DNA of 64,000 nt from an uncultured Dehalococcoidia bacterium (GCA_951813255.1 OX638353.1:3084782-3148781); one strand, 5' to 3'; shown: positions 9,237 through 40,322, counted from the stretch's first letter. Notes: generated from the letters alone by a model not told the origin. Numbers and translations: made by a program.

Positions 9237-10034
9237 TTAGTCTAGCGAATGTTGGATGCGGTAACGTCCGGATTTGACTAGGTTGATGCTATTGTAGTCA
9301 TTTGAGTCTTCAAAGCGGAATTGCCAAAGGTGATATTCATCGTTAGCTGTGCGTTGAAAGAACAAGGTGTACACTGGTTTCCTGGTCTGGATCTGCCATT
9401 GTCGGAAAGGGTAATAGAGCTGCCTGATGATAGTGTTGTCGGCGTTCCCGTTTTTGGCTTCAATCAGTACGACCTTGTCCTTTCCCTCATAGCCGGCATC
9501 CACCTCCGTTTGGACTCCCTCCGCAGCGATCTGGAAACCACCAACCATGAACTTGAATCCGGAGGTGTATTTTCTGCCTCGAATGGTGAGCACGAGAGAA
9601 GTATCTTCCATGAAGTGTCGGATTAGACTTAGCGCATACGCGTGATCTAGATGCTGCATCTCCGAGTTACCAACTCGGGAAGTCTCCAATTCAAACGGAA
9701 AAGTACTGTTGTAGCTTAGTAGAGCGGACGTGATGGGTGGGATATCAACGTATCCTTCACCCTTGACAATTGTGTACTGGCCGTTTTTCACCGGCAGGAT
9801 AAACAGCCCTCTATCTTGGAAGACCGTCGGGCGGCTCTCTCGGGTATCTTGCTTGCACAGGATGCGAACTTCTTTTTCTGCCGTCCTCTTGAAGTCCTGA
9901 CACGCGGTTTTTATCTGCTGAGCAGACAATGAGTATGGTGCCTTTTCGAAGTCATGGTCATGGATCAAACCATGATCGAAGATAGCTCTCCAGCTAGGCG
10001 AGTTACCATAAGTGGCCTGCATATCACCGATCAT
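9237..10034 (-). CDS. putative type II restriction endonuclease (PD-(D/E)xK-like)
   Basis: Last gene of the operon with the methyltransferase. VDAGYEGKDKVVLIEAK fits D...(E)xK. AT-rich (about 42-45% GC in the lines counted). ATG at 10034 has a GGAG RBS, and the long ORF start at 10115 would overlap the upstream ORF. Confidence 0.5.
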   Translation of the reverse strand: MIGDMQATYGNSPSWRAIFDHGLIHDHDFEKAPYSLSAQQIKTACQDFKRTAEKEVRILCKQDTRESRPTVFQDRGLFILPVKNGQYTIVKGEGYVDIPPITSALLSYNSTFPFELETSRVGNSEMQHLDHAYALSLIRHFMEDTSLVLTIRGRKYTSGFKFMVGGFQIAAEGVQTEVDAGYEGKDKVVLIEAKNGNADNTIIRQLYYPFRQWQIQTRKPVYTLFFQRTANDEYHLWQFRFEDSNDYNSINLVKSGRYRIQHSLD

Positions 10035-10056
10035 CACGGCTCCGCCAGTGCGAGGT

Positions 10057-10422
10057 CTACACGTGGTCGCCCAAAATTCTAATCTGGCAAGGTCGCACTG
10101 GCTCCCTGTTGTCAAACGCGAGTAGGAATTGCTCGCCTGCTCTATCGAGCCAATAGTAGTAGTCCCAATCGGCTATTATAGTTTCAGACACAACAGCACC
10201 GGTATTATCGACAAACCAGTCGTCGGCGTCGTCAAGCTTTATTTCGTTGACAGCGTGAGCAATCGGACACTCGTGCATTGAGCCGACGAGTCCGGCATCG
10301 ATGTGCCTTTGTTCGATGTTGACAAGGATGCCTTCCCCGTCATCTTCGTCGCCTAGAGGCTCGGAGAAGCCAATGTTCTTGTCTATGGTTAATGCTTCTC
10401 CAGGAAGCATGATAGTGACCAT
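10057..10422 (-). CDS. hypothetical hyper-acidic protein between the MTase and nuclease genes
   Basis: 121 aa with a very strong RBS (GGAGGAGGAAGG). About 25 Asp/Glu versus about 7 Lys/Arg. No motif recognised. Confidence 0.5.
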   Translation of the reverse strand: MVTIMLPGEALTIDKNIGFSEPLGDEDDGEGILVNIEQRHIDAGLVGSMHECPIAHAVNEIKLDDADDWFVDNTGAVVSETIIADWDYYYWLDRAGEQFLLAFDNREPVRPCQIRILGDHV

Positions 10423-10466
10423 TTGTTCCTTCCTCCTCCTCTGTTGTTATCCCGCGGAAGAGCTTG

Positions 10467-11357
10467 TCATCGGCAATGAGGGACGTAAGTGCCTCTTGTC
10501 TCCAACAACCGTCTCTGGACTGGGTGCTCATCTTGGAGACCATGGTTCTCCTGTGGTTGAGACGGACCGCACTCTGCTTGCAGGCGTCGGATGGTTAGGT
10601 CCACATACTCCGGCTCATTCTCGCAGACTATGAAAGGTCTATTCAAACGGAGGGCCGCTATCCCGGTTACCCCTGAGCCTGCGAATGGGTCCACGACTAG
10701 GTCTCCGGCCGTCGTGGAGGCACGGAGACATCGGTCAACAAGAGCAAGAGGCTTCTGTGTGGGATGTTTGCCGAAAAGCTTCTCGTCCCTCCCAGGGGGA
10801 AGGATGTTCCAGACGCTCTTCATTTGCCTGCCGCCGTTCTCCTGACGCATCTCCCCGTAGTTGAATGTGTACTTGTGCCGACTACCTTTAGGGGCTTTCG
10901 TGGCCCATAGGACTGTCTCGGTAGAGTGGGTGAAGCAGCGACAGCCGAGATTCGGGGGCGGATTGGGTTTCTCCCAGGTGATGTCGTTCAGGATACGGTA
11001 GCCTAGCTCGAGCATGGCCATCCCGACGCTCAAGTACACATGCAGAGTACCGGTCACCCAAATGGTCCCAGTTGGCTTAAGAATCCGGTGACACTCAGCC
11101 AGCCAACTACGATGGAACTCGTGGTCGAGTTGGAGGCCCTGACTCTTGTCCCAGGTGCCCTTGTTAACGGTGGTGCGCTTGCCAGCGACGCAGGTTGTCC
11201 CGTCGTTGGACAGAAGATAAGGAGGGTCGGTCCATATGCAGTCCACGCTGTCGGAAGGCAGGGTTTGCATAAAGTCCAATGCGTCCGCATGGAAGACCTG
11301 TGAAAGTCCATCGTCCGATGCCCAGACAGGTTCTACGAGAACTGGTTGTATTCGCAC
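10467..11357 (-). CDS. site-specific DNA methyltransferase, beta-class (N6-adenine or N4-cytosine)
   Basis: Motif IV DPPY (CIWTDPPYLL) is N-terminal to motif I (VVDPFAGSGVTG), and HPTQKPLAL is present. This is the circular permutation typical of beta-class amino-MTases. Confidence 0.85.
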   Translation of the reverse strand: MRIQPVLVEPVWASDDGLSQVFHADALDFMQTLPSDSVDCIWTDPPYLLSNDGTTCVAGKRTTVNKGTWDKSQGLQLDHEFHRSWLAECHRILKPTGTIWVTGTLHVYLSVGMAMLELGYRILNDITWEKPNPPPNLGCRCFTHSTETVLWATKAPKGSRHKYTFNYGEMRQENGGRQMKSVWNILPPGRDEKLFGKHPTQKPLALVDRCLRASTTAGDLVVDPFAGSGVTGIAALRLNRPFIVCENEPEYVDLTIRRLQAECGPSQPQENHGLQDEHPVQRRLLETRGTYVPHCR

Positions 11358-11533
11358 TCATCAGCCTTTGTCTATCAAGGTTGTGGCTTGTGTACCATCG
11401 TCTCCCCAGCGGTGTCAACGCGCAGATGGCATGGTCTAAGTGGCGCGCTGTTCGCCACGTTGCTTCGTTCGACGGGCCGGGCCTTCGATTGTGGTACCAT
11501 ACTTAAGACCATATCACTGGGAGGAGTGAGATC

Positions 11534-12193
11534 ATGATTTATGACGTTCGGACTTATGAGATTGCGCCGGGGCGGGTGCCTGATTACATGAAGAATGTGA
11601 AGGAGATTGCGATCCCCATACGGAATGACTATGGGGTGAAGCTGGGCGGGTGGTACCACTCGGAGGCGGGGCCACTGAACCAGGTGGTGCATATCTGGGC
11701 GTATGAGGACATCAAGCATATGGTGGAGGGCGCCGAGGCAGTGCGTGCCGACAAGCGGTGGACGGGAGAGTATATGCCGGCCAACCTTGGTCTGGTGCAG
11801 TCGCAGCGGGACTCCATCTCGGTGCAGGCGCCCTTTGCGCCGGAGTCGTACGAGACGGTGGAGTCGGCGGAGCCGCGGTTGTATGACATGCGGATTTACG
11901 ACATCAAGCCGGGGCAGATTCCCGTTTACATGGAGGCTGTGGAGCAGGTGGGGCTGCCGATACGGGAGGAATTGGGGGTGAAGCTGGCGGGGTGGTTCTA
12001 CAGCGACGTAGGTACACTGAACCAGGTGATGCATATCTGGGCATACAACGACTCGGACGACCTGTCGCGCAAGATGCGGGCGGTGTACCAGCATCCGGGT
12101 TGGACGGGCGAGTACATGCCGCGGGTGCGGGGCGTGATTGATGTGCAGCGGGACCAGTTGATGAGGGGTGGGGACTTCTTCCCTGGGCCGTAA
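11534..12193 (+). CDS. NIPSNAP family protein (two NIPSNAP domains)
   Basis: 219 aa. Internal duplication: MIYDVRTYEIAPGRVPDYM...LNQVVHIWAYED and LYDMRIYDIKPGQIPVYM...LNQVMHIWAYND. Confidence 0.8.
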   Translation: MIYDVRTYEIAPGRVPDYMKNVKEIAIPIRNDYGVKLGGWYHSEAGPLNQVVHIWAYEDIKHMVEGAEAVRADKRWTGEYMPANLGLVQSQRDSISVQAPFAPESYETVESAEPRLYDMRIYDIKPGQIPVYMEAVEQVGLPIREELGVKLAGWFYSDVGTLNQVMHIWAYNDSDDLSRKMRAVYQHPGWTGEYMPRVRGVIDVQRDQLMRGGDFFPGP

Positions 12194-12204
12194 AGGCCGG
12201 GATT

Positions 12205-12558
12205 TTGACTGAAGAGAGTGCGACAATTCAAGCTGGTGGACGGATCTTTACGAAATCCGCCCACTTGTTTACAGGGCTACATCCGGAGATGAACGACCAG
12301 ATCAGGGCCTACATCCTAGAGAATTGGGTGATAGCTGGCGACCGTCAGGACCCCGAGACTGGCAAGCGGTCACGGAACTACATGGTAGAGGTACCCGAAT
12401 TAGGTAAGATGGCCATGGTGGCAGTATCGCTGGAGGAGGACTCTCCTACCAACTTCATCACCACGTCCCATCCGGTCGGGAAGCTGACAGCAAAATGGCG
12501 GCAAGGTGGCTTGGACTACTTCTATCGCCGTTTCGAGCGCGTGGAGATACGGAGATGA
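12205..12558 (+). CDS. hypothetical protein, 4-bp-overlapped partner of the DUF2283 gene (possible toxin-like partner)
   Basis: 117-aa ORF from TTG (first ATG at 12289). Its stop overlaps the downstream ATG (ATGA). No family motif securely recognised. Confidence 0.4.
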   Translation: MTEESATIQAGGRIFTKSAHLFTGLHPEMNDQIRAYILENWVIAGDRQDPETGKRSRNYMVEVPELGKMAMVAVSLEEDSPTNFITTSHPVGKLTAKWRQGGLDYFYRRFERVEIRR

Positions 12559-15135: not shown

Positions 15136-15486
15136 ATGGGAATCTTCGACGTTACGATTGGCATCGGCCACCCCGAAGGCGGTGATTTGGCCGAAGCCTC
15201 AGCTATGGTCGACACTGGATCGATTCATACCATGTTGCCAGCGGGGTTCCTAGAAGGACTCCGCATAAGGCGAGACAGACTGGGAATCTTTGAGATTGCC
15301 GACGGGACTGAAGTTGAGTATGGATATGGTACTGCGCGCATATCCATAGGTGGGGACGAGTGGGCCTGCCCGGTAATCTTCGGGCCGGAAGGGCAATACC
15401 TGGTTGGGGCGACCACACTGGAGATATTCGGATTGGCCGTTGACCCACGGGGACAACAGCTGATCCCGCGTCCTCGCCGCATCTGA
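15136..15486 (+). CDS. stand-alone retropepsin-like (clan AA) aspartyl protease domain protein
   Basis: 116 aa. Catalytic-type VDTGS motif and C-terminal LVGATTLEIFGLAVDP. Homologous to 39573-39929. Confidence 0.65.
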   Translation: MGIFDVTIGIGHPEGGDLAEASAMVDTGSIHTMLPAGFLEGLRIRRDRLGIFEIADGTEVEYGYGTARISIGGDEWACPVIFGPEGQYLVGATTLEIFGLAVDPRGQQLIPRPRRI

Positions 15487-15562: not shown

Positions 15563-16912
15563 ATGGCCGAGGCTTATGAGTTGAGCTTGTCAGAGTCGGC
15601 TCAGGAGATTGCGTCGGGACGGCTTTCGCCAGTGGAATTGTCGCAGTCGCTGCTGGGGCGGATCGATGCCAAGGAGAACCTGCAGGCGTGGGTCACTGTG
15701 GACCGGGAAGAGGTGCTGGGAGCGGCGTCGAGGGCTGAGGAGGCCATCGGCAAGGGGGAGTCGCTGGGCGCGCTGCATGGGGTGCCCATTGGGCTCAAGG
15801 ACATCTTCTATACGGCAGGCATGAAGACGACTGCGTGTTCGCCTTTATATTCCGACTTTGTGCCGGAGTACGATGCTACGGTGGTGGCCAAGCTCAAGGA
15901 GGCTGGGGCCATTGTGCTAGGGAAGGCGGTTACTACGGAGTTTGCGACGGCGGACCCGTCGCCGACGCTCAATCCTTGGAACCATGCACATACGCCGGGT
16001 GGGTCGAGCAGCGGGTCTGCTGTGGCGGTGGCTACGTCCATGTGTGCGGGGGCTTTGGGGTCTCAGACGGGCGGGTCGACCTGCCGGCCTGCGTCCTACA
16101 ACGGGATTGTGGGGTTGAAGCCGACCTATGGGCGTCTCAGCAAGTATGGGGTTATTCCGGCGTCTTGGTCGCTGGATACGGTGGGAATACTGGTACGCGA
16201 TGTGATCGACGCCACCCTGATGCTGCAGGTGATGGCGGGGTATGACCCCAATGACCCGTCGTCGGCGCATGAGCCGGTGCAGGACTATGTGGGGCCCGTG
16301 GCGAACTACCCGATGGCGCCGCGGGTGCGACTGATACGGCAGCACTTTCTTGAGGTGTGCGACGATGAGACGCGGGCCAACACTGAGTGGGCTTTTGACA
16401 AGTTTGCTGACCTAGGGTGCGAGGCTGATGAGGTGGGGCTGCCTGCCAGCTTCGACACCTGCTACTCGGCGCACCGCGTGGTGATGGATGTGGAGTGCGC
16501 CACCTTCCACGAGGAGTTGTTCCGTCAGCACCCTGACCAGTATGGTCCGAAGCTGCGTTCCACCATTGAATCGGGCATGCTGATGCCTGGGGTGCGCTAC
16601 CTGCAGGCGCAGCGAATGAGGAGCGCCTTTGCCCGCGACATGCGGGAGTTGGTGGCAGGTGGGGCGATACTGGTGACGCCGACGACTCCAGCGGTGGCGC
16701 CGCGGGACTTGGGTACCACGGGTGATCCCGTCTTCCAGAGCCCCTGGACATCCTGCGGACTGCCCACCATCACCCTCCCCTCGGGACTGAACGCCGACGG
16801 CTTGCCGTTCGGGGTGCAGCTTATCGGGGCCCCGTTCCGTGAGGATGAGTTGTTGTGTGCTGCGCGCTGGTGTGAGGCAGCACTGCGACAAAGCTTGCGC
16901 CCGCCGGAGTAG
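15563..16912 (+). CDS. amidase (amidase-signature family, GatA-like)
   Basis: 449 aa. GGSSSGSAVAVA signature and LHGVPIGLKDIF. Confidence 0.9.
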   Translation: MAEAYELSLSESAQEIASGRLSPVELSQSLLGRIDAKENLQAWVTVDREEVLGAASRAEEAIGKGESLGALHGVPIGLKDIFYTAGMKTTACSPLYSDFVPEYDATVVAKLKEAGAIVLGKAVTTEFATADPSPTLNPWNHAHTPGGSSSGSAVAVATSMCAGALGSQTGGSTCRPASYNGIVGLKPTYGRLSKYGVIPASWSLDTVGILVRDVIDATLMLQVMAGYDPNDPSSAHEPVQDYVGPVANYPMAPRVRLIRQHFLEVCDDETRANTEWAFDKFADLGCEADEVGLPASFDTCYSAHRVVMDVECATFHEELFRQHPDQYGPKLRSTIESGMLMPGVRYLQAQRMRSAFARDMRELVAGGAILVTPTTPAVAPRDLGTTGDPVFQSPWTSCGLPTITLPSGLNADGLPFGVQLIGAPFREDELLCAARWCEAALRQSLRPPE

Positions 16913-16968
16913 GGTCATTTGTGCACTAACGATGGGACCTATTTCGCCGCATATACGGGAGAACTGAC

Positions 16969-17196
16969 ATGGCTGACTCCAGAGTAGCTGACTTGACGAT
17001 TGGGGAGTTCAAGACCCTCGTGCGGGAGTCGGTCGCCGAATCGATCGCTGAACTGCTGGGGGATCCTGATGAAGGGTTGCCCTTGCGGGATGACTTCGCG
17101 GAAGAACTCAGGCAATCTCTTAAGGAAGTCCGCGACGGTGGTGGAACTTCCAGTCTAGCGGAGTTCGTGCTACGCGAACCCGAGCCGGAGGGTTGA
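16969..17196 (+). CDS. putative antitoxin of the RelE/ParE-type pair
   Basis: 75-aa acidic ORF. Its stop (TGA 17194-17196) overlaps the TTG start of the toxin gene. Confidence 0.5.
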   Translation: MADSRVADLTIGEFKTLVRESVAESIAELLGDPDEGLPLRDDFAEELRQSLKEVRDGGGTSSLAEFVLREPEPEG

Positions 17197-17456
17197 ATCC
17201 GGATGTTGAACTGACTTCCAAGGCCAGTGCCGACCTGCGGCGCTTGGATCCCTCCGTCGCGCGTCGGGTCATCGACAAGCTGCAGTGGTTGGCAGATAAC
17301 TTCCATGTACTGAGACACGAACCATTGAGTGGTGACTGGGAGCGCGTGTTCAAGCTCCGCGTCGGAGCCTACCGTGTTTTGTATTCCATTGAGGGCGACC
17401 AGAGGGTAGTCGTTCACTTTGTTAGGCATCGAAGAGAGGTGTACAGGAGACCATGA
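17193..17456 (+). CDS. type II toxin, RelE/ParE family
   Basis: 87 aa. LTSKASADLRRLDPSVARRVIDKLQWL...KLRVGAYRVLYSIEGDQRVVVHFVRHRREVY is typical of RelE/ParE. TTG start with GGAG RBS. Confidence 0.75.
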   Translation: MNPDVELTSKASADLRRLDPSVARRVIDKLQWLADNFHVLRHEPLSGDWERVFKLRVGAYRVLYSIEGDQRVVVHFVRHRREVYRRP

Positions 17457-17480
17457 CTCGACCTCGTTACGTTGTGGGTA

Positions 17481-17534
17481 GCGCGTTGGTGCGAGGCCTC
17501 GTTGCGCCAGAACCGGCGCCCACCGGAGGGGTAG
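17481..17534 (+). repeat. copy B of the amidase 3'-terminal coding segment (relic)
   Basis: Translates in frame as ARWCEASLRQNRRPPEG*, compared with the amidase end ARWCEAALRQSLRPPE* (16862-16912). It lies directly before the MNT start codon. Confidence 0.75.
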
Positions 17535-17536
17535 TG

Positions 17537-17854
17537 ATGACCTCGGACGGTACAGTCGCAACCATGGTGGAGCGTATCGTGGAGCGGTTTCAGCCATGCC
17601 GTGTAATGCTTTTTGGGTCTCGCGCCAAGGGCACGGCCACCGAGTGGAGTGATGTGGACCTGCTGGTGGTACTGGAAGGGGTGACGGACAAGAGGCAAGC
17701 AACAGTGGAAATGCGCCGTGCGCTCGGGGACCTAATGGTTAGCAAGGACATCGTGGTGACTACTGAAGATGAGATCCAGCTCCGTGGTCATGTGTTGGGA
17801 ACTGTCCTCCACGCTGCGCTCAGTGAAGGCAAAACCGTCTATGAGCGACGTTGA
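17537..17854 (+). CDS. nucleotidyltransferase (MNT) antitoxin-type protein of an MNT-HEPN pair
   Basis: LFGSRAKGTATEWSDVDLLVV (GSx10-11DxD pol-beta NTase motif). ATG 17537 has a GGAGGGG RBS and matches the start of the relic copy at 18337. Confidence 0.8.
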   Translation: MTSDGTVATMVERIVERFQPCRVMLFGSRAKGTATEWSDVDLLVVLEGVTDKRQATVEMRRALGDLMVSKDIVVTTEDEIQLRGHVLGTVLHAALSEGKTVYERR

Positions 17855-18257
17855 CCCCACGGTAGACGAAGCCCGCCGCTGGCTCCGCTTTGCGGAGGAA
17901 GACCTCAAGGCTGCGCACATTCTCATGTCGGCTGCCGAGCCTTCGTCGCGACACGCTTGCTGGCTATCCCAACAAGCAGCAGAGAAGAGCCTCAAGGCCG
18001 GGCTAATACTTGAGAGCATTGCATTTCCATTCACACATGACCTTGATGTCTTGCGCAATCTTCTCCCCAGTGGATGGTCGGTGAAGGAAACACACTCGGA
18101 TCTGGCGGACTTGACGGAGTGGGCGGTAGAGGGCAGGTATCCCGGAGATTGGCAGGAACCCACGTTGGACGACGCTATTCGTGCCGAATCAGCGGCCACT
18201 CTGGTCTACGAGTTGATAAGTTCAGAAATGACCCGTCGTGGTCTGACCCCAAACTAG
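17841..18257 (+). CDS. HEPN domain protein (toxin-type partner of MNT)
   Basis: RRWLRFAEEDLKAAHIL...AAEKSLKAGL...FPFTHDLDVL matches the HEPN Rx4-6H region. Overlaps the MNT gene by 14 bp. Confidence 0.8.
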   Translation: MSDVDPTVDEARRWLRFAEEDLKAAHILMSAAEPSSRHACWLSQQAAEKSLKAGLILESIAFPFTHDLDVLRNLLPSGWSVKETHSDLADLTEWAVEGRYPGDWQEPTLDDAIRAESAATLVYELISSEMTRRGLTPN

Positions 18258-18277
18258 AGTTCACTATATGACCGTGC

Positions 18278-18334
18278 GCGGCGCAGTGGTGTGAGGCGGC
18301 GTTGCGACAGAGCCTGCGCCCGCCGGAGGGGTAG
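18278..18334 (+). pseudogene. copy C of the amidase 3'-terminal coding segment (relic of a displaced amidase allele)
   Basis: Reads AAQWCEAALRQSLRPPEG*. It differs from the live gene end mostly at synonymous positions (gca/gcg, ctg/ttg, caa/cag, ttg/ctg). Confidence 0.7.
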
Positions 18335-18336
18335 GC

Positions 18337-18450
18337 ATGACGTCAGACGGGACAGTCGCAACCATGGTGGAGCGGTTCCAGCCAAGCCGAGTTCTACTGT
18401 TCGGCTCCCGCTCTCGAGGCACTTGCAGTGAGCGGACGATGTTGATTCCT
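18337..18450 (+). pseudogene. truncated, frameshifted MNT nucleotidyltransferase remnant
   Basis: MTSDGTVATMVERFQPSRVLLFGSRSRGT parallels intact MNT MTSDGTVATMVERIVERFQPCRVMLFGSRAKGT. It then loses frame before the DxD motif and is cut off by the convergent oxidoreductase gene. Confidence 0.7.
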
Positions 18451-18451
18451 T

Positions 18452-19426
18452 CTACGGACGCAACAACACCTTCCCAAAGCTTCTCCTGTCCGCTAGATGG
18501 CGGTGGGCGTTGCCTGCCTCGCTTAGGGGGAAGACGCGGTCGATTACGGTGCGGAGCTTGCCTTGAGCGCAGAGGTCGAGAATGGTCTGGAGTTCCTGCA
18601 TGACTCCTCCGGAGCTCATCTGGGCGGCTAGGGAGAAGCCCTGAAGGGTGAGGAGGCGGTTGAGCATGAGGCCCGGTTCGACGGTGGCGGGCTGGCGGCT
18701 GGTGTTTCCGACGGTGACGGCGCGGCCACTCATGGCTAGGGCTTGGATGCTCTTGGTAAGCACCTCGCCGCCAACGGCCTCAAGTACAACATCAACACCT
18801 GCCCGGTCCGTGATGGACATCGTCTCGGTGAGGAAGTCGGCTTCGGTGTAGTTGATGCAGTGGTCTGCGCCGAGTTCGCGGGCCTTGTCGAGTTTGTCCT
18901 GGGAGCCGGCGGTGGTTATGACGGTGCAGCCCATATGCTTGGCGATCTGGATGCCTGCCATGCCCACGCCACTGCCTGCAGACTGGATGAGGGCCGTCTC
19001 GCCTTGCTTGAGGTTGGCGACGTTACGAAGGGAGAACCAAGAGGTGAGGAAGACTATGGGGATGCTGGCGGCCTCGTCGAAGGAGACCCCATCGGGTATG
19101 GGAACGGTGCCTGCCTCGTTGACGGCGGTCATCTCGGCGTAGCCGCCGTGGGGCAGAGTGGCGACCACCCGCTGGCCGACTTGCCGGGTGCTGACTTCGG
19201 AGCCGACGGCGACAATCGTGCCAGCAACGTCCCAGCCGATGATCAGGGGCAGAGAGGGCGCTGCGCCACCGCCATAGCTGCCATCGCGTCGGAAGAGGTC
19301 GCCACGGTTGACGGAGGCCGACTCGATGCGGAGGAGCACTTGGCGGGGGCGGGGCTCAGGGTCGGGGACATCCTCGTAGCGGAATACGTCCTCGTTGCCT
19401 GTCTCGTGGATGATGGCGGCTTTCAT
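18452..19426 (-). CDS. NADPH:quinone oxidoreductase / MDR-family dehydrogenase
   Basis: 324 aa. VLLRIESASVNRGD and SAGSGVGMAGIQIAK. Confidence 0.85.
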   Translation of the reverse strand: MKAAIIHETGNEDVFRYEDVPDPEPRPRQVLLRIESASVNRGDLFRRDGSYGGGAAPSLPLIIGWDVAGTIVAVGSEVSTRQVGQRVVATLPHGGYAEMTAVNEAGTVPIPDGVSFDEAASIPIVFLTSWFSLRNVANLKQGETALIQSAGSGVGMAGIQIAKHMGCTVITTAGSQDKLDKARELGADHCINYTEADFLTETMSITDRAGVDVVLEAVGGEVLTKSIQALAMSGRAVTVGNTSRQPATVEPGLMLNRLLTLQGFSLAAQMSSGGVMQELQTILDLCAQGKLRTVIDRVFPLSEAGNAHRHLADRRSFGKVLLRP

Positions 19427-21298: not shown

Positions 21299-23215
21299 AT
21301 GGTAGGTTCAAGAAGATTCAGGGCAGCGATAATCGGAGTAATGCTGCTGATGCTGGCGGTGATCATCGCCTGCGGCGAGGAAGCCACGGAGACAGCGGCG
21401 CCAACTGCCGCGACCGCCGCGCCCCCGGCGGCGGAAATTGTGACCCTTCCCCCATCGGTCACGGGACAGACTCCTGTTGCGACCGCCACCACAGCCGCCG
21501 CAGTTCCCGCTACACCCACTCCCGGAACCGTGCCCGAAGGCACCTTGGACGTGGGCATGGCAGTTCTTGGCCCTTACGTAGCGACCAACTACGAGGCGGG
21601 CTACTTCCAGAACAGGTTCGCTGAGCTGGTGACCCACGAGACCCTTTTCATCATGGGGTATGACGGCGAGTGGGAGCACCGCTTGGTGACAGGGTTTGAC
21701 GTCTCGCCTGATGGGCTGACCTACACGATCAGACTACAGGAAGGCGCCAAGTGGCATAACAGGACCAACCCCGGCGAGTGGGGTGAGTTCAACGCCGACG
21801 ATTTCATCTGGTCAATCGGTGAGATTGCCCGTGAAGGCGGGTCGCACGTGCAGAACGGCAACACCCGTAAGGTGTTCAGGTGCGATGGGTGCGAGCTGAC
21901 CAAGATTGACGATTACACGGTGCAACTCAAGCGCCCCACCCCCACTTTCCAGCTTACCTGGTACAGCCAAGCCCCCATCCCCGGCTTCTCCATGAACAGC
22001 AAGAAGCATTTCGACGCTGTGACCCCGGAAGAAGCGGTGTTGCAGGATGTGGGCACTGCCCCTTGGGAGATGGTGGAGCACAAGACCGACGAACTCCGCC
22101 GGATGCGCGCAGTCGAGGACCACTGGCGGCACGTCCCGGAGTTCGCCGAGATGATCTGGTGGGACATACCGGAAGAGTCCACCAAGCTGGCCAACTTCCA
22201 AGCTGGACAGCTGGATACGGGCATCTTCAACTCGGACTCCATACAGGCCATGAAGGACGACCCCGTCAATAACCTGACCTTTATGGTCTTCCCCGCCGCC
22301 ATCATCCAGATGATGTGGTTTGAGGCAAATCACTACACACCCGACTCCCCGCACCACCAGCCGGATGCGGAAGGCAAGGTCAAGGTGCCGGTGGACCCAC
22401 ACTACTCCGACTATCGGAATCTGTGTGACAACGGCGAGAACGGTGATGACACCCGTCCTTGGGTTGCCTGTGACCGGGATGTGAACTCTGCGGAGTGGGA
22501 GCGGGCACGCAAGGTGCGCGAGGCGATGCTCCGGGCCATCAACCGCGACGAGTTGATTAACAACATCGCCTTTGGAGAGGGCGAGCCTTGGTACATCGGC
22601 ATCTGGGCGAACCGTGGGCGGATGCAGCAACTCGGCTTGGACAAGCTGGGGCCGCCTGATGGGCCTAGGCCGATGGACTACGATCCTGAGTTGGCTAAAC
22701 AGTTATTGGTAGAAGCAGGCTACCCCGACGGTTTTGAGGTACCTATTGCCAAGAGGCTGGGTACGGGCACCCTGCTCACAGTCAAAGAGGCCGTTGCAGG
22801 CATGTGGGAGAAGATCGGCCTCACGACCAAGCTGCGGAACGAGCAGCCCGCCTCCTACCGTGTGAAGAGCCAGCAACGTACAGCCATAGACATCTATGGG
22901 CTGAACGACGCGCCCAGCTTCCCGGAACCGCTGCGGGTGTACAGCACGGTCTACACCTCATCCAGTGGTGGCATGTTCGGTGTCAATCACCCCATCATGG
23001 ATGACCTCATTGCCAAGGCGGAAACCACGTATGACACTGACGAGCGTTGGAGGGTGCAGGGAGAGCTGGCTGAGTTCATCTTCGAGAACGTTCTCAGCAT
23101 GCCCCTGTACGCTGAGAACGCGGTCTGGCCTCTCAGTGGCGAGGTGGATTCCTGGCAGGTAGCTCCGGCCGAGTTGGACTGGCTCAGCTACTGGGATATG
23201 CCACGCCGGAAGTAA
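21299..23215 (+). CDS. ABC-transporter family-5 (peptide/oligosaccharide-type) substrate-binding lipoprotein, paralog 1
   Basis: 638 aa. Lipobox LAVIIACGEE, Ala/Thr/Pro tether, then an SBP_bac_5-like body. GGAGG RBS. Confidence 0.8.
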   Translation: MVGSRRFRAAIIGVMLLMLAVIIACGEEATETAAPTAATAAPPAAEIVTLPPSVTGQTPVATATTAAAVPATPTPGTVPEGTLDVGMAVLGPYVATNYEAGYFQNRFAELVTHETLFIMGYDGEWEHRLVTGFDVSPDGLTYTIRLQEGAKWHNRTNPGEWGEFNADDFIWSIGEIAREGGSHVQNGNTRKVFRCDGCELTKIDDYTVQLKRPTPTFQLTWYSQAPIPGFSMNSKKHFDAVTPEEAVLQDVGTAPWEMVEHKTDELRRMRAVEDHWRHVPEFAEMIWWDIPEESTKLANFQAGQLDTGIFNSDSIQAMKDDPVNNLTFMVFPAAIIQMMWFEANHYTPDSPHHQPDAEGKVKVPVDPHYSDYRNLCDNGENGDDTRPWVACDRDVNSAEWERARKVREAMLRAINRDELINNIAFGEGEPWYIGIWANRGRMQQLGLDKLGPPDGPRPMDYDPELAKQLLVEAGYPDGFEVPIAKRLGTGTLLTVKEAVAGMWEKIGLTTKLRNEQPASYRVKSQQRTAIDIYGLNDAPSFPEPLRVYSTVYTSSSGGMFGVNHPIMDDLIAKAETTYDTDERWRVQGELAEFIFENVLSMPLYAENAVWPLSGEVDSWQVAPAELDWLSYWDMPRRK

Positions 23216-23249
23216 TAACGCAGCATTCGCGAAAAAAGTGACCGAACGA

Positions 23250-23287
23250 AAGAGCCCCGGCTAGTGTGGCCGGGGCTCTTCTGGTTT
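23250..23287 (+). terminator. terminator hairpin after SBP gene 1
   Basis: AAGAGCCCCGGC (23250-23261), 7-nt loop, GCCGGGGCTCTT (23269-23280), then CTGGTTT. Confidence 0.55.
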
Positions 23288-23404
23288 CGAAAGGAGCAAC
23301 TTCGCCATATTACGCGCAATGGCATAGGCTCTCACAAGGGCTGGGACGGGTCCGTTGTACTCCCAGGTGTGCAGGAATGCGGTAAACAACAGACCATTTA
23401 TGGA

Positions 23405-23433
23405 TTGACGAGGGGCAAAGGCTCTGCTAACCT
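23405..23433 (+). promoter_or_regulatory. sigma70-like promoter candidate for SBP gene 2
   Basis: TTGACG, 17-nt spacer, TAACCT. The -10 region CTCTGCTAACCTACACCGTCGC is conserved with promoter 3. Confidence 0.4.
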
Positions 23434-23510
23434 ACACCGTCGCCTTGAGGGGCGCCTATTTGATGTTGGGTGCCTCACTGGGTATTGGCATACTTGATTG
23501 GAGGTCACGG

Positions 23511-25460
23511 ATGTTAGGTACTTGGAGAGGCAAATCCGTGATAGTAGGGGTGCTGCTCCTGCTGTTAGCGGTGATCATAGCTTGCGGAGAAGAGGCAACG
23601 GATGCGCCGGCCCCGGCTGCAACAGCCACGTCGGCAGCTGAGGTCGTAACTCTGCCCCCATCGGTTACCGGTCAGACACCGGTTGCCACACAGGCTCCGG
23701 TAGCGGCAACGCCTGAAGCCGACGATGCAATGATGGCAATGAAACCCGAAGGCACGTTGGACGTCGGCATGGCCAACCTTGGTCCCTATGTGGCCACCAA
23801 CTACGATGCTGGCTACTTCCAGAACCGCTTTGCAGAGCTGGTTACCCACGAGACCCTGTTCGTCATGGGATACGACGGTGAGTGGGAACACCGCTTGGTG
23901 AAGAGTTTCGATGTTTCGCCCGATGCCCTCACTTACACGATTCGTCTGCAGGAGGGCGCCAAGTGGCACGCTGGAGCTGAGTCCCAAGGCGATTGGGGCA
24001 ATCTCAATGCCGACGACTTCATATGGTCCATCGGTGAGATATCTAAAGAAGGCGGGAAGCATGTGCAGCGCGGAAACACCGAAAAGGTGTTCGGCTGTGA
24101 CGGTTGCAGCCTGACCAAGATCGACGACCTGACTGTTGAGCTAAAGCGACCGACCCCCACCTTCCAGCTCACTTGGTTCAGCCAAGCCCCCATCCCCGGT
24201 TTCTCCATGAATAGCAAGACGCATTACGACACTGTAGGTCAGGATGTGGCGTTGCTGGAGGACGTGGGTACCGCTCCTTGGGAAATGGTAGAACACCGCA
24301 CGGACGTGCGTCGCCACATGAAGGCGGTTGAGGACCACTGGAGGCACACTCCTGAGTTCGCCGAAATGATCTGGCACGACATACCGGAAGAGTCCACCCG
24401 CTTGGCCAACTTCCTAGCTGGCGAATTGGACACCGGTATCTTCAACTCGGACTCACGTCAGGCGATCCAGGATGCCATCAGCTCCGGCACCCACCCGGAC
24501 ACGAAGTTCATGGTCTTCCCTGCTGCCATCATCCAGATGATGTGGCATGAGGGCGGACACTACACCCCGGACTCCAAGCACCACCAGCCCAACGAAGAGG
24601 GCGACATACCCAACGACATCGACGATTTCATTGGTAACTTTGAGAACATCTGCGACGACTCCGAGATCGTAAACGGTGTTGCGACGGAGATGAGCTCTGA
24701 CGATCGTCGGCCGTGGATTTCCTGCGACCGCGATGTCAACTCCCCTGAGTGGGAGCGAGCGCGGAAGGTCCGCGAGGCTATGCTGCGCAGTATCGACCGC
24801 GATAGCCTCATCAACAACATCGCCTTCGGCGAGGGCGAGCCTTGGTTCGTCGGCATCTGGGCCAACCGTGGCCGGATGCAGCAACTGGGATTGGATACGC
24901 TGGGCCCTGGCGACATGGACTATGACCCTGTCGCTGCCCAGGAACTCCTGGCAGAAGCCGGTTACGCTGACGGGTTTGCCGTTCGCGTGAACAAGCGCCT
25001 AGGCACGGGCACCCTTCTGTTGGTAAAGGATGCTGTGGCCACTGACTGGCTCGAAATGGGCTTGGATGTGACACTGCAGAACCAGCAGCCCGCTGCATAC
25101 CGTGTGACTAGCCAAGCACGGAAAGTAAACGACATCTACGGGTTGAACGACGCTCCCAGCTTCCCCGAGCCCCTCAGGGTTTACAGCACGGTGTACACGT
25201 CTTCAGGGACCAACCTGTTCGGTATCAACCACCCGGACATGGACCAGTTCATCCTGGACGCGGAAGCCGAGCTGGACACCGATGCACGGTGGGGGATACA
25301 GGGTGAATTGGCTAAGTTCATCTACGAGAACGTGCTGAGCATGCCTCTGTACGCTGAAAACGCCGTATGGCCTCTTGGGCCTGAGGTAGACTCCTGGCAG
25401 GCCTCCCCTGCCGAGCTCGACTGGCTGAGCTACTGGGACCACCCACGGCGTCGCCAGTAA
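23511..25460 (+). CDS. ABC-transporter family-5 substrate-binding lipoprotein, paralog 2
   Basis: Start moved to ATG 23511 (GGAGGT RBS; MLGTWRGKSVIVGVLLLLLAVIIACGEE). Collinear with paralogs 1 and 3. Confidence 0.8.
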   Translation: MLGTWRGKSVIVGVLLLLLAVIIACGEEATDAPAPAATATSAAEVVTLPPSVTGQTPVATQAPVAATPEADDAMMAMKPEGTLDVGMANLGPYVATNYDAGYFQNRFAELVTHETLFVMGYDGEWEHRLVKSFDVSPDALTYTIRLQEGAKWHAGAESQGDWGNLNADDFIWSIGEISKEGGKHVQRGNTEKVFGCDGCSLTKIDDLTVELKRPTPTFQLTWFSQAPIPGFSMNSKTHYDTVGQDVALLEDVGTAPWEMVEHRTDVRRHMKAVEDHWRHTPEFAEMIWHDIPEESTRLANFLAGELDTGIFNSDSRQAIQDAISSGTHPDTKFMVFPAAIIQMMWHEGGHYTPDSKHHQPNEEGDIPNDIDDFIGNFENICDDSEIVNGVATEMSSDDRRPWISCDRDVNSPEWERARKVREAMLRSIDRDSLINNIAFGEGEPWFVGIWANRGRMQQLGLDTLGPGDMDYDPVAAQELLAEAGYADGFAVRVNKRLGTGTLLLVKDAVATDWLEMGLDVTLQNQQPAAYRVTSQARKVNDIYGLNDAPSFPEPLRVYSTVYTSSGTNLFGINHPDMDQFILDAEAELDTDARWGIQGELAKFIYENVLSMPLYAENAVWPLGPEVDSWQASPAELDWLSYWDHPRRRQ

Positions 25461-25488
25461 ACCAGTCTCAACCCAGAGTGCAAATGCG

Positions 25489-25522
25489 GAGCCCCGGCCA
25501 TGTGGCCGGGGCTCTTCTTTTT
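25489..25522 (+). terminator. rho-independent terminator after SBP gene 2
   Basis: GAGCCCCGGCC, 4-nt loop, GGCCGGGGCTC, followed by TTCTTTTT. Confidence 0.7.
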
Positions 25523-25553
25523 CGAGTGGTCAGTCCCGGCCCGTACGAGCCAT

Positions 25554-25582
25554 TTGACTAAGTATTGGCGCTCTGCTAGCCT
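25554..25582 (+). promoter_or_regulatory. sigma70-like promoter candidate for SBP gene 3
   Basis: TTGACT, 17-nt spacer, TAGCCT. CTCTGCTAGCCTACGCTGTCGC is conserved with promoter 2. Confidence 0.4.
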
Positions 25583-25661
25583 ACGCTGTCGCTTTAGGTC
25601 ACTCGGCGTTCGGCTTGCTCCGACCAACGCGGCAAGAACTATTTGTAATGGAGGTCTCTGA

Positions 25662-27608
25662 ATGTTTGGTAACAGAGGATCCAAGGCCGCCATAGTGGGG
25701 ATTTTGCTGCTATTGTTGGCGGTCATTATCGCGTGCGGTGAGGAGGCAACGGCTACGCCAGCGCCCGCAGCCACTGCTGCACCCGCTGCCCCTGCAGCGA
25801 CGGCAGCGGCTGCCCAGCCCGCCGCGACGGCAGCCCCTGCAGCCCCTGCAGCACCGGCACCCGCGGCCACCCCCGGAGCGGTGCCTGCGCCAGCCCCGGC
25901 AACGCCTGCGCCGACGGCTGCCATGATGGACGGCGAGAAGCCCGAAGGAACCTTCAACGTGGGCATGTCGGGTCTCGGCCCCTACGTGGCTACGCTCTAT
26001 GATGCAGGCTACTTCAAGAACCGGTTTGCCGAGTTGGTCACACACGAGACCCTCTTCATCATGGACTATGAGGGTGAGTGGGCCCCCCGGCTGATTAAGA
26101 GCTTTGATATCTCCCCCGACGGACTGACCTACACCATGTACCTGCAAGAAGGTGCCAAGTGGCACGCAGGTGCTTCGGCCGCGGGCGACTGGGGTGAGTT
26201 CAACGCCGACGATTTCATCTGGTCAATCGGTGAGATCGCCCGCGAAGGCTCGAACCATGTGCAGTCGGGCAACACTCGCAGGGTGTTCGAGTGCGATGGC
26301 TGCGCGTTGACCAAGATCGACGATTACACAGTGGAGCTCACCCGCCCAGCTCCAACGTTCGAGTTGACGTGGTACAGCCAAGCTCCCATCCCCGGCTTCT
26401 CCATGAACAGCAAGAAGCACTATGAGGCCGTGGGCCAAGACGTGGCGTTGCTGGAAGATGTAGGCACCGCCCCTTGGGAAATGGTGGAACATATCACCGA
26501 CGACCGCCGCGTTATGAAGGCAGTGGAAGACCACTGGCGCCATGTCCCCGATTTTGCGGAGATGGTCTGGCACGACATGCTTGAAGAGTCCACCCGCTTG
26601 GCCAATTTCCAGGGCGGTCTTCTGGACACGGGCATCTTCAACTCGGACTCCGTCCAAGCGATGAAGGACAGTCCCGTTGAGGGGCAGACCTTCATGGTAT
26701 TCCCTGGGGCCATCGTCCAGATGCTGTGGTTCGGTGGCGGCCATTACACACCCGACTCCCCACACCATCATCCTGATGCTAATGGCGACATCCGGGTAAG
26801 GGTGGATGAGGAAGGAACCAGTTACACGTACTTCTGCGACGATGGCAGCGGTGAGGACCAGAGGCGCCCGTGGGTGTCTTGTGATCGGGAGGTCGGCTCT
26901 GAGGACTGGGAGAGGGCTCGCAAGGTACGCGAGGCCATGACCATATCCATCAACCGGCAAGCGCTGATCAACAACATCGCGTTTGGCGAGGGCGAGCCGT
27001 GGTACATCGGCATCTGGGCCAACCGTGGCCGGATGCAGCAACTGGGCCTAAATGACCTGTCGTGGGAATACAACCCCGAGCGGGCCAAGGAACTGCTGAC
27101 TGAGGCAGGTTACCCCGACGGCTTCAAGGTGCCCATCGCCAAGAGGTCCGGCACCGGCACGCTTCTCCTGGTGAAAGACGCCGTGGCCGGTATGTGGGAA
27201 CAGATCGGACTGGAGACCGAGCTACGCAACGTGCAGGCAGCGTCCTACCGGACGATAAGCCAAGCCCGCAAGGCCAACGACATATACGGCCTGAATGATG
27301 CTCCCAGCTTCCCCGAGCCTCTAAGGGTGTATGGCACAGTTTACAGTTCCGACACCAACGACATGTTCGGAGTCAACCACCCGGAGATTGACCGGCTCAT
27401 TGAAAAGATACGGGCGACCTTGGACACCGACGCGCGGTGGGGGGTCCAAGGAGAGTTGGCGGAGTTCATCTTCGACCAGGTATTCAGCATGCCTCTGTAT
27501 GCTGAGAATGCCGTCTGGCCCCTCAGTGGCCGGGTGGGCCCTTGGCAGGCTGCCCCCGCTGAGCTGGACTGGCTGAGCTACTGGGAGATGCCTCCGCGCA
27601 AGAACTAG
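25662..27608 (+). CDS. ABC-transporter family-5 substrate-binding lipoprotein, paralog 3
   Basis: 648 aa. Lipobox LAVIIACGEE, the longest Ala/Pro tether, and a conserved body (NIAFGEGEPWYIGIWANRGRMQQLGL, SMPLYAENAVWPL). Confidence 0.8.
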   Translation: MFGNRGSKAAIVGILLLLLAVIIACGEEATATPAPAATAAPAAPAATAAAAQPAATAAPAAPAAPAPAATPGAVPAPAPATPAPTAAMMDGEKPEGTFNVGMSGLGPYVATLYDAGYFKNRFAELVTHETLFIMDYEGEWAPRLIKSFDISPDGLTYTMYLQEGAKWHAGASAAGDWGEFNADDFIWSIGEIAREGSNHVQSGNTRRVFECDGCALTKIDDYTVELTRPAPTFELTWYSQAPIPGFSMNSKKHYEAVGQDVALLEDVGTAPWEMVEHITDDRRVMKAVEDHWRHVPDFAEMVWHDMLEESTRLANFQGGLLDTGIFNSDSVQAMKDSPVEGQTFMVFPGAIVQMLWFGGGHYTPDSPHHHPDANGDIRVRVDEEGTSYTYFCDDGSGEDQRRPWVSCDREVGSEDWERARKVREAMTISINRQALINNIAFGEGEPWYIGIWANRGRMQQLGLNDLSWEYNPERAKELLTEAGYPDGFKVPIAKRSGTGTLLLVKDAVAGMWEQIGLETELRNVQAASYRTISQARKANDIYGLNDAPSFPEPLRVYGTVYSSDTNDMFGVNHPEIDRLIEKIRATLDTDARWGVQGELAEFIFDQVFSMPLYAENAVWPLSGRVGPWQAAPAELDWLSYWEMPPRKN

Positions 27609-30758: not shown

Positions 30759-31028
30759 TCATTGTGCATTGAGGTCATCGATCAAACGAGCGACCTCCGC
30801 TAATTGGACGTCAGAGAGCTCCTGCAATCTGGCTGTCAGGTTGGACGGTACGCTCGCCGATTCATCCAGCCTATCTTGGACGTCATCGTAGTCTCCACTG
30901 GCTAGGCGTTCCTGCTCTTGCTGGGCCTCATGATCATCGGGAGCGTCGGGATGCCGGTCAGGGTCGATGAGTCGGAATATCTCTTCCTCATCATCGCCGC
31001 TTCCATATATGGACCTAATGCTGGTCAT
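30759..31028 (-). CDS. hypothetical hyper-acidic 89-aa protein coupled to the Panacea-domain gene
   Basis: ATG shares one nt with the upstream TAA (TAATG). About 24 Asp/Glu, 0 Lys, 7 Arg. The C-terminal LQELSDVQLAEVARLIDDL helix is reminiscent of addiction-module components. Confidence 0.45.
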   Translation of the reverse strand: MTSIRSIYGSGDDEEEIFRLIDPDRHPDAPDDHEAQQEQERLASGDYDDVQDRLDESASVPSNLTARLQELSDVQLAEVARLIDDLNAQ

Positions 31029-31492
31029 TATCCTTGCTGTTGTTCGATCAGCGCAGCGTAGTAGTCTCTGATAACGTGGTTGTGGATGATCTGCCTTCGC
31101 TTATCCCGTCGATAAGTCTGTTCCCACGGCGAGTTTTCTACGTGGGTCATCCGGGATAGGCGAGTCCCGTCAAGTTCCCCATATCGCTTCCAAACAACCC
31201 GAATCACTTTCTCTTCCTGATCACTGAAGGTGGTCTCCTCCGTCAAGATAGGCTCCGTGATCCGGTCTCCACCGTAGTGTTTCAGCTCGTGGTATAGTGC
31301 CCTGATGACTGGGCCATGTTGCCATGATTCGACGGCGTCTTGGAACAAAGGTCCATTGCCTAGCCCTAGCATCCATGCGTGGCAGAAGTACGTCAGCTTC
31401 TGTGCCTTCATGGGCGTGATGGGGGTCTCGTCTACTATAGATAACCGGATTAGTTTATCAGCGACTGCTAGGGCACTATGCCGCGCACCCAC
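31028..31492 (-). CDS. DUF4065 / Panacea-domain protein (SocA/GepA-like antitoxin-type)
   Basis: 154 aa from GTG with GGAGGTG RBS. ITPMKAQKLTYFCHAWMLGLGNGPLFQDAVESWQHGPVIRALYHELKHYG matches the DUF4065 core (KLxKLxYfa...fxAWxxGPV). Confidence 0.7.
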   Translation of the reverse strand: MGARHSALAVADKLIRLSIVDETPITPMKAQKLTYFCHAWMLGLGNGPLFQDAVESWQHGPVIRALYHELKHYGGDRITEPILTEETTFSDQEEKVIRVVWKRYGELDGTRLSRMTHVENSPWEQTYRRDKRRQIIHNHVIRDYYAALIEQQQG

Positions 31493-39572: not shown

Positions 39573-39929
39573 CTACCCTCTCAGTGGGACGGACTCAAGC
39601 TCTTGATCTATGGGATTGACCTTGAATCCAAGAATCTCCAAAGACGTGGCCCCAAGTAGGACTTGAGTGTCCTCCGGCCCAAACCATATGGGGCACGGAG
39701 ACTTCTTACCCTGGCACTCTATCATCACCATGCCAACATCCCGCCACTCGATCGAGTCATTGCCAATTACTACCATATCCTTTTCAGGTAAGGGGTGGAC
39801 GCTCAGTTCATGCAACATAGTCGCAGGAGCCTTGGACTTGGTAGCTCCGGTATCGACCAACACCTCAACCTGTCTGGCCTCACCACCATTGACATTGGAT
39901 ATATGTATATACGTTACGACTGATCCCAC
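39573..39929 (-). CDS. stand-alone retropepsin-like (clan AA) aspartyl protease domain protein, second copy
   Basis: VLVDTGAT, CPIWFGPE and LLGATSLEILGFKVNP align with 15136-15486. GTG 39929 (AGGAAG/GAGGAG upstream) gives 118 aa, matching the paralog's 116 aa. The track ORF extends to 40196. Confidence 0.6.
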   Translation of the reverse strand: MGSVVTYIHISNVNGGEARQVEVLVDTGATKSKAPATMLHELSVHPLPEKDMVVIGNDSIEWRDVGMVMIECQGKKSPCPIWFGPEDTQVLLGATSLEILGFKVNPIDQELESVPLRG

Positions 39930-40322
39930 ACTTAAAGCTTCCTGCTCCTCATAATTGGATCGAGCGGGGTTCGACGTCGGCTGGGTTGTAAGCGCGTAGA
40001 ATGTCAGCGCTGGGGCGCTGCTCACACACACACGCATGGGGAACGCCGTGACGGAGGCATCACCCAGGAACGATGAACTAATGGCAAAGACTTCCGGCAA
40101 GGAAGCATGCAGGGCTGGACCATGGTTCATCTGGGGGCCTACCACCAAGAAGAAGAAGGATACGACCATAGTGGCGGCGACGGGCAGGTCTGGCATTGGG
40201 CCATCCTGTTACCCTCATGCGATACTCATACATTGGAGCGAGCATCGAGCTGAGGGAGCGCACCGTCACTTCGGAGCGCGAGAAATGGACCATCCCAACC
40301 GGATAACTGAGGATGATTTGTC

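Follow-up and report, generated by a model that had tools for sequence, protein, structure and literature searches.

Stacked amidase gene ends and toxin-antitoxin cassettes in a variable slot of an uncultured Dehalococcoidia genome: a probable case of sequential displacement

What kind of process leaves three copies of the end of one gene standing in a row, separated from each other by small gene pairs of the toxin-antitoxin (TA) type? The question is raised by a 64,000-nt stretch of DNA from an uncultured Dehalococcoidia bacterium (GCA_951813255.1 OX638353.1:3084782-3148781; hereafter the window, in whose coordinates positions are given unless a contig is named), in which an amidase gene and a convergent quinone oxidoreductase (QOR) gene enclose two such pairs. 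One consists of a putative antitoxin (AT) and a predicted ParE-type toxin, and the other of a minimal nucleotidyltransferase (MNT_B) and a HEPN-domain protein (HEPN_B); an MNT relic (MNT') lies behind them (Table 1). An earlier note on this stretch had described three diverged copies of the amidase 3' coding end, designated A (the live end), B and C, as the borders of stacked cassettes. We conclude that amidase-anchored sequential displacement, to which we assign a probability of roughly 0.7, is the best explanation of this arrangement.

The three copies are real and related. A repeat search returned one three-member family of direct repeats of 55 nt, at 16855, 17474 and 18274, with a 101-nt extension common to the second and third copies, and no other gene-end repeats of this stub type were found elsewhere in the 64-kb window. 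Copies A and C are 84% similar over 55 nt (blastn E 1.6e-11), B and C including the adjoining MNT head are 85% similar over 94 nt (E 1e-25), A and B are 73% identical, and a degenerate 42-nt pattern finds no match in the 64 kb other than A and C, and 0 in 100 shuffles; the similarity is far above chance. The copies proposed earlier are thus borne out, with left edges moved by up to about 10 nt (16862 to 16852, 17481 to 17471 and 18278 to 18274), and so are their translations in the amidase frame, which read LLCAARWCEAALRQSLRPPE in A, LWVARWCEASLRQNRRPPEG in B and PCAAQWCEAALRQSLRPPEG in C, each followed by a stop. Synonymous and nonsynonymous differences were counted by the Nei-Gojobori method. 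Between A and C there are 7.5 synonymous and 1.5 nonsynonymous differences, which gives a ratio of the nonsynonymous to the synonymous proportion of differences (pN/pS) of 0.06 (P 8e-5); the ratio is 0.18 between A and B (P 6e-4) and 0.21 between the head of MNT_B and the relic (P 1.6e-4), so that the differences are largely synonymous, as had been claimed. Across all comparisons pS lies between 0.43 and 0.73 and pN/pS between 0.06 and 0.36, and from this strong synonymous excess it follows that the copies diverged while coding.

Copy C and the relic behind it have a live counterpart in the nearest relative, L070, whose amidase is 98% identical in amino acids and 93.6% in nucleotides and whose QOR is 97% identical in amino acids. 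In L070, as in L071, L072 and L074, MNT starts 1-2 nt 3' of the amidase stop codon (…CCGGAGGGGTAG-G(C)-ATG), which makes the amidase end, with the GGAGGGG Shine-Dalgarno sequence that it contains, the native 5' flank of MNT; this is the common and probably ancestral state of the clade. The C-MNT' sequence of the window has 47 identical nucleotides in common with the live amidase-MNT junction of L070 (GGGGTAGGCATGACG…GTGGAGCG), and the relic is 94.7% identical in nucleotides to the MNT gene of L070 compared with 76.6% to MNT_B, 800 nt upstream. C-MNT' is therefore the resident allele of the lineage. Relative to the live L070 allele it has suffered a 12-nt in-frame deletion between GTGGAGCG repeats and a 1-nt frameshift deletion near 18437, and it ends, truncated, 2 nt short of the QOR stop codon (18452-18454); the relics of the strain contigs L068 and L069 carry identical lesions. 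Two further statements of the earlier note hold here, namely that B adjoins an intact MNT and C a frameshifted, truncated remnant, and that the relics represent diverged, once-coding alleles rather than a recent local duplication. In its right half and at the junction that follows (TTGCGCCAGAACC…GGGGTAG.GATGACCTCGGACG), B is similar to the live junction of amidase and MNT in L071, and B-MNT_B is an allele different from the resident C-MNT'.

Copies A and C are mosaic. The left 28 nt of A agree with the live end of L070 at 27/28 positions, and its right 27 nt agree at 27/27 with the AT-ParE-associated type seen in L069x, the junction at the start of contig L069. In C, the left 28 nt agree at 27/28 with the C type of L068 and L069, and the right part continues as L070 sequence. 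The longest stretch identical in A and C is 14 nt. The body of the amidase gene is L070-like along its full length, with no switch of nearest relative up to the repeat, and a search for a breakpoint within it found none. Compared with L070, the window thus differs by one 1,419-nt block (619 + 800 nt) with both ends inside the 55-nt repeat, which we read as a probable signature of homologous recombination.

The amidase was scanned against 185,579 species genomes, which returned Dehalococcoidia metagenome-assembled genomes (L001-L004, amidase 90-94% identical in amino acids), and L068-L076 were added via the closest MNT and ParE homologues; a scan of JGI metagenomes with the amidase found no relative closer than 59%. 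Some of the runs that hold the locus are labelled sponge metagenome. Amidase orthologues in L001-L004 and L070-L076 are 90-98% identical with upstream synteny kept, QOR orthologues of the relatives are 82-97% identical, and the flanks are kept in 16 related Dehalococcoidia contigs (L001-L004 and L068-L076 among them), with PPIase, a small aspartyl-protease-like open reading frame (ORF) and the amidase on one side and QOR, an AMP-dependent ligase and SBP on the other.

Between these flanks we find at least nine different fillings in related genomes and strain contigs. The window, L068 and L069 contain AT-ParE, stub B, MNT-HEPN, stub C and MNT'. Other relatives with AT-ParE have behind it a ~34-nt stub and a 296-aa gene on the minus strand in DNA of 51% GC (L001), a ~155-nt stub and an FRG-domain gene (L075), or a ~155-nt stub, a 258-aa gene and PIN (L076). 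In L073, AT-ParE is followed directly by MNT, with no stub, and then by a 572-aa ORF with leucine-rich repeats (L073:5305-7023), which starts at the MNT overlap in the position of HEPN and has no recorded HEPN match; this assembly is of low coverage, and a frameshift artefact is possible. MNT-HEPN is followed by a ~59-nt stub and SBP in L071 and by SBP in L072, and L074 has MNT and SBP. L070 has MNT and a HEPN gene cut after about 30 codons by DNA of 49% GC with a DGQHR (DpdB/DndB-like) gene, which leaves an orphan MNT (L070:4400-6115). L002 and L003 have an SBP paralogue only (L002:7421-9403; L003:7429-9873), and L004 has an AriA/PtuA-like ATPase. Among strain variants in Logan contigs, X5 has AT-ParE and a 21-nt B stub joined to the QOR end, X7 has an intact MNT of the L070 type, and X10 and X12 have HEPN genes with internal deletions of 162 and 138 nt. 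The GC content of the cargo is 49-57%, compared with 63-64% in the flanks.

Since the fillings differ among relatives and the arrangement is not identical everywhere, the slot is a hotspot, and the alternative fillings that a hotspot predicts are found between the same flanking genes. The description of the amidase end as a landing pad for TA cassettes stands as far as the variable slot is concerned, but the slot is not specific to TA modules, as its cargo also includes the SBP paralogue, the DGQHR/DpdB-like gene, the AriA/PtuA-like ATPase, the FRG-domain gene and the PIN gene. Because a further SBP paralogue occupies the slot in several relatives, the ancestral filling was probably amidase-SBP.

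The displaced gene ends vary in length: 0 nt in L073, ~34 in L001, ~59 in L071, 61 in C, 64 in B and ~155 in L075 and L076. The stub of the last two covers amidase residues 409-449 and starts directly after the ParE stop codon, and its first bases, CTCTGC(C/T)CTCCCGGTCAAC, resemble the 14-nt spacer in front of B. Given this resemblance, and given that the L001 stub has the same left edge as B, B is probably a long (~155-nt) stub shortened by internal deletion; copy B is common to L068 and L069 and is cut to ~34 nt in L001. In L071 the old amidase-SBP intergenic region still follows the stub, which implies that MNT-HEPN itself once displaced an L002-type junction. A relic of MNT or AT-ParE was sought after the L071 stub and none was found; the DNA there is the SBP start. 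The first 9 nt after HEPN_B (AGTTCACTA) recur behind HEPN in L072, and L071 has a related spacer 5' of its stub, so that the window may owe its HEPN-spacer-stub joint to an L071-type ancestor, and the right half of C to a crossover with the resident amidase end. The joints between ParE and stub (L075, L076) and between HEPN spacer and stub (L071 and the window) have no extended homology, and their 2-3 nt of microhomology are indistinguishable from chance. The final ~60 nt of the amidase might contain a promoter or operator of MNT; the last 30 nt are conserved at 24/30 positions among four live junctions, barely above the upstream level of 20-22/30. The 56-nt leader 3' of the amidase stop codon is conserved in L069, L075 and L076, is more diverged in L001 and L073, and has no relation to the sequence at the foreign loci L077 and L078.

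We propose that the amidase-QOR gap is a recombination-fed variable islet in this uncultured Dehalococcoidia clade. Incoming DNA of a related strain would be anchored by homology in the amidase gene and would bring its own amidase 3' end, so that the enzyme stays intact; the old gene end of the recipient, instead of being replaced, would be left downstream as a non-coding stub joined to its former neighbour, and repeated rounds would stack the junctions by age. The resident state, live in L070, would have been amidase-MNT_C-HEPN_C, with MNT 2 nt after the amidase stop codon. The entering 1,419-nt block would have consisted of the right half of A, AT-ParE, stub B, MNT_B-HEPN_B, the spacer and the left half of C, and would have entered via crossovers within the ~55-nt repeated amidase-end segment, after which the redundant resident pair would have decayed to the MNT' relic. 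For stub-flanked donor DNA, ordinary homologous recombination would be enough, whether as a double crossover, an unequal exchange or a single crossover of a circle. First-time right junctions would require one illegitimate joint each, by homology-facilitated illegitimate recombination (HFIR), such as the joint of ParE and stub at about -155 (L075, L076) and that of HEPN spacer and stub at about -59 (L071). Once a cassette has a downstream stub it would be an amidase-flanked block, movable by ordinary homologous recombination, and addictive cargo would favour stacking over clean replacement. As AT-ParE, B and MNT_B-HEPN_B probably entered as one block, the arrivals in this genome may be fewer than the layers. 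The earlier picture of successive arrivals that pushed older junctions downstream is therefore kept in part: C-MNT' is the resident junction, live in L070, but MNT-HEPN was not simply an arrival.

In a quite different account, a tyrosine or serine recombinase whose gene lies elsewhere would act on an attachment site in the amidase 3' end, with the 619-nt and 800-nt units as integrase-less cassettes (CIME- or integron-like) inserted in tandem and the direct repeats derived from att sites. It is in agreement with the direct repeats that flank each unit and with a newcomer that restores the gene end, as with integrative elements, as well as with crossovers of A and C inside the repeat, with a spread of only about 6 nt among the stub edges of the window and L071, with L069x, which resembles a reciprocal, attP-like junction, and with the like accretion of ssrA islands in Dehalococcoides (PMC3146451). 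However, no recombinase was found nearby, as the earlier note had pointed out, and this negative covers the ORFs at 6-33 kb of the window as well as the conserved flanks at 16 related loci; one that acts in trans is possible. Stub length is not fixed, ranging from nothing to the ~155 nt of L075 and L076, the identical run of A and C is short, and B-MNT and C-MNT' are native chromosomal junctions of relatives. Moreover, no conserved inverted repeat or significant hairpin was found in the stubs: when A, B and C were folded as DNA, each on either strand, the z-scores were between -1.4 and +0.2, and the fold differs from copy to copy. Taken together, these observations make site-specific integration unlikely. 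An integron cassette array with attC-like sites was considered and rejected, as no integrase was found and A, B and C have no common fold.

If the amidase-end/MNT-HEPN segment had been duplicated in tandem within this genome, and the copies had then diverged and decayed where they stood, direct repeats at distances of 619 and 800 nt and a tandem pair of MNT 5' ends would be expected, both of which are seen; but such a duplication would not yield copies that diverged while coding, a relic closer to the live MNT of another genome than to its neighbour, mosaic ends A and C, or AT-ParE between A and B, and we regard it as very improbable. Even less credit is due to a chimeric contig in which assembly or binning merged strain variants. 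The samples do hold several strains, and contigs break at the repeats, where both L068 and L069 start; yet an independent 8,338-nt Logan contig (run X1) has 0 differences over 16500-18800, a 1,464-nt contig in run X8 covers 17010-18476, and L068 and L069, from other samples, have the same layout as the window. The arrangement is not an assembly artefact.

Several points weigh against sequential displacement in the form described. No recombination intermediate was seen, the Logan contigs of 12 runs containing neither a circle nor a tandem junction, and for exchange of the RecA type an arm of 55 nt with 73-84% identity is short. On their left sides, B (-61/-64), C (-58) and the stub of L071 (-59) have edges of a regularity beyond that expected of random illegitimate joints; for C, inheritance from a stub of the L071 type, and for B, secondary deletion may account for this regularity in part. 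The events may also have run in the other direction, since excision between A and C in a window-like ancestor could in principle have given rise to L070. HEPN_B does not contain the Rx4-6H motif and has only a reversed HDLDVLR. The last point concerns the start of contig L069 (L069:1-84), which consists of a HEPN 3' end, the 16-nt spacer, a hybrid stub (28/28 identical to the left part of C and 27/27 to the right part of A) and the AT leader, and continues as AT-ParE-B-MNT-HEPN-C-MNT'-QOR. It is possibly the reciprocal product expected of an exchange between A and C, in the form of a circle or a tandem duplication, and could also be an assembly chimera across a shared run of 24-32 nt. In the sister-sample contig L080 the amidase lies upstream of A. 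The hybrid junction was not reproduced in the Logan contigs of the 12 runs, which contain no go-back joint between C and A; their one go-back joint, in X7 (18429 to 17642), is simply the intact L070-type MNT allele.

A more far-reaching and doubtful idea, which we put forward only tentatively, is that the displaced stubs serve as portable homology arms and make small TA units integrase-independent mobile cassettes. Through exchange between its stubs, a block flanked by them could be excised as a circle or duplicated in tandem, and could then enter any amidase-bearing genome by ordinary homologous recombination; the start of L069 would be a product of reciprocal exchange caught in a natural population.

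The cargo modules of the window are a ParE-type pair and an MNT-HEPN pair. The toxin of the former matches PF05016 with 51.4 bits against a cut-off of 23, its match to TIGR02385 (RelE_StbE) is below the cut-off of that model, and only 16 homologues at E<=1e-8 were found in 5.8 billion proteins. Its 75-aa partner has no Pfam, NCBIfam or PADLOC match and is always paired with ParE (L001, L073, L075-L079), the pair being conserved in 8 loci; as other genomes have AT-ParE at loci unrelated to this slot (L077-L079), the pair is a mobile module. In MNT_B the GSX10DXD motif (GSRAKGTATEWSDVD) is located at residues 27-41, and the six closest homologues of this protein (P0002-P0007, 98-77% identity) are all located 3' of the orthologous amidase, in the same slot. 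The MntA equivalog model NF047752 gives 36.4 bits against a cut-off of 60, and a sequence search of the PDB with HEPN_B found no relative among solved structures. Judging from its sequence, the MNT-HEPN module probably works like type VII systems (PMC7641770), although we do not file it as a member. Both modules, being predicted TA systems, presumably resist loss by post-segregational addiction.

Toxin genes decay in some strains. ParE is frameshifted in L001 and L068, the HEPN deletions of X10 and X12 correspond to window positions 17902-18065 and 18117-18256, and the tblastn match of HEPN is split in L068 and L069; the eroded stretches of the relatives include L068:903-1315 and L001:7634-7898. 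The MNT genes are intact where the toxin genes erode. The decay is consistent with selfish modules that erode after arrival. An ATG that overlaps the ParE stop codon (ATGA) opens a frame at 17453-17854 that runs through stub B into MNT and would encode an N-terminally extended MNT of 133 aa, possibly in translational coupling with ParE; what keeps this frame open is a TGC in B at the site where A and C read TGT followed by GA. A scan for promoter and terminator consensus sequences in 16600-18700 found none, and no RNA runs containing the locus were found.

Table 1. Features of the amidase-QOR slot and its borders, in window coordinates.
Feature	Position	Strand	Remarks
Amidase (449 aa), left anchor of the variable slot	15563..16912	+	Pfam PF01425, E 3e-90
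Copy A, live amidase end, mosaic	16852..16912	+	
AT-ParE cassette leader, 56 nt	16913..16968	+	
Putative antitoxin (AT), 75 aa, family unrecognised	16969..17196	+	stop overlaps ParE start (GTTGA)
ParE/RelE-superfamily toxin (predicted), 87 aa	17193..17456	+	PF05016
14-nt spacer (CTCGACCTCGTTAC)	17457..17470	+	probably left tip of a formerly longer (~155 nt) amidase-end stub
Copy B, displaced amidase end	17471..17534	+	gives MNT_B its native 5' flank and Shine-Dalgarno sequence
MNT_B, minimal nucleotidyltransferase, putative antitoxin, 105 aa, intact	17537..17854	+	PF01909/PF18765 (NTP_transf_2/Polbeta)
HEPN_B, putative toxin, 138 aa, intact here	17841..18257	+	PF05168, 68 bits; 14-nt overlap with MNT stop
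3' flank of the MNT-HEPN unit, 16 nt	18258..18273	+	
Copy C, displaced amidase end	18274..18334	+	right part and downstream sequence = resident junction
MNT' relic	18337..18449	+	resident MNT allele; 12-nt deletion, 1-nt frameshift, cut at QOR gene end
Quinone oxidoreductase (QOR), zinc-type ADH family, convergent, right border of the slot	18452..19426	-	Pfam ADH_N, ADH_zinc_N

Other parts of the window add some observations. Three tandem SBP_bac_5 paralogues (21299-27608) lie to the right of the AMP-dependent ligase gene beyond QOR. Small ORFs at 15136-15486 and 39573-40196 have weak matches to retroviral-type aspartyl-protease domains (E about 1e-4), and the former is conserved directly 5' of the amidase in all relatives. 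A segment of lower GC content at third codon positions (9237-12226) encodes a DUF6996/DUF6997 protein, an N6/N4 DNA methyltransferase and two ORFs without family, and looks like an islet of the restriction-modification type. A SocA/Panacea-domain protein (31028-31492), whose domain is of the antitoxin type, is encoded amid housekeeping genes (RNase HII, MnmA, RsfS, NDK) and may represent another small TA insertion. At 42577-42977, three tandem 156-nt units (66-85% identity) with the internal motif CTACG.CGTGAGACA lie within a 230-aa ORF (42323-43015).

The closest known process is the sequential displacement described for Rhs 'orphan' C-termini (Jackson 2009, as cited in PMC5361080) and for the effector-immunity arrays of the type VI secretion system (T6SS) in Vibrio cholerae, where HFIR was proposed for the first insertions and ordinary homologous recombination for the later spread of arrays (Kirchberger 2017, PMC5361080). 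In these arrays, as at the present locus, there is a conserved upstream anchor, the newcomer supplies a new 3' end and its cargo, older 3' fragments move downstream along with their partner genes, and no dedicated recombinase is involved. Here the live end A joins a resident left to a donor right part, and older ends are retained, both at C-MNT' and in the L071 stub. In contrast to those arrays, the displaced part is the conserved C-terminus of the amidase (PF01425) rather than a polymorphic toxin domain with a cognate immunity gene, and each toxin has a gene of its own. An ordinary amidase serves as the anchor, 34-155 nt of coding DNA that no longer functions make up the stubs, TA or defence genes complete in themselves form the cargo, and the host belongs to an uncultured Dehalococcoidia lineage.

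Next closest are the genomic islands of Dehalococcoides, which accrete in tandem at the 3' end of ssrA in a recombinase-dependent manner (McMurdie 2011, PMC3146451). They are found in the same class, and likewise involve repeated insertion at the 3' end of one gene, with a direct repeat that marks each layer. However, they depend on a site-specific recombinase and a fixed short repeat, whereas the present locus has variable stubs and units of 0.6-0.8 kb; neither a recombinase in or next to the array nor repeats of fixed length with an identical core, as expected of integrative elements, are seen. A survey of defence islands in E. coli is said to provide an example of integration hotspots flanked by core genes, for which exchange via flanking homology is the usual explanation. 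The slot is like such hotspots in that one interval between two conserved genes holds differing accessory, defence or TA genes in relatives, but these hotspots normally do not have an ordered trail of displaced gene ends, whereas the stubs seen here record order and could act as homology arms. With MNT-HEPN (type VII MntA/HepT) and ParDE-type modules (PMC7641770; PMC2701414) the cargo has in common two small overlapping genes, an MNT with GSX10DXD and a HEPN-domain partner, and a ParE-fold toxin behind a small upstream gene. It differs from type VII systems in a HEPN of the PF05168 type without Rx4-6H and in the MntA equivalog score below cut-off, and from ParDE and RelBE in the 75-aa partner of ParE, which falls outside the recognised antitoxin families (ParD, Phd/YefM, RelB).

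What is new at this locus is the logic of sequential displacement at an ordinary metabolic gene, with TA and defence cargo, in an uncultured, symbiont-type member of the Chloroflexota without genetics. The locus is an unusually legible record of how a hotspot flanked by core genes is filled without mobile-element machinery, since each event would leave a dated stub, and the order of arrival and the crossover points can be read from the sequence. It suggests that accretion can take the place of replacement where TA modules are addictive, and that short gene ends left behind can at a later time act as homology arms and carry whole blocks of cassettes from strain to strain.

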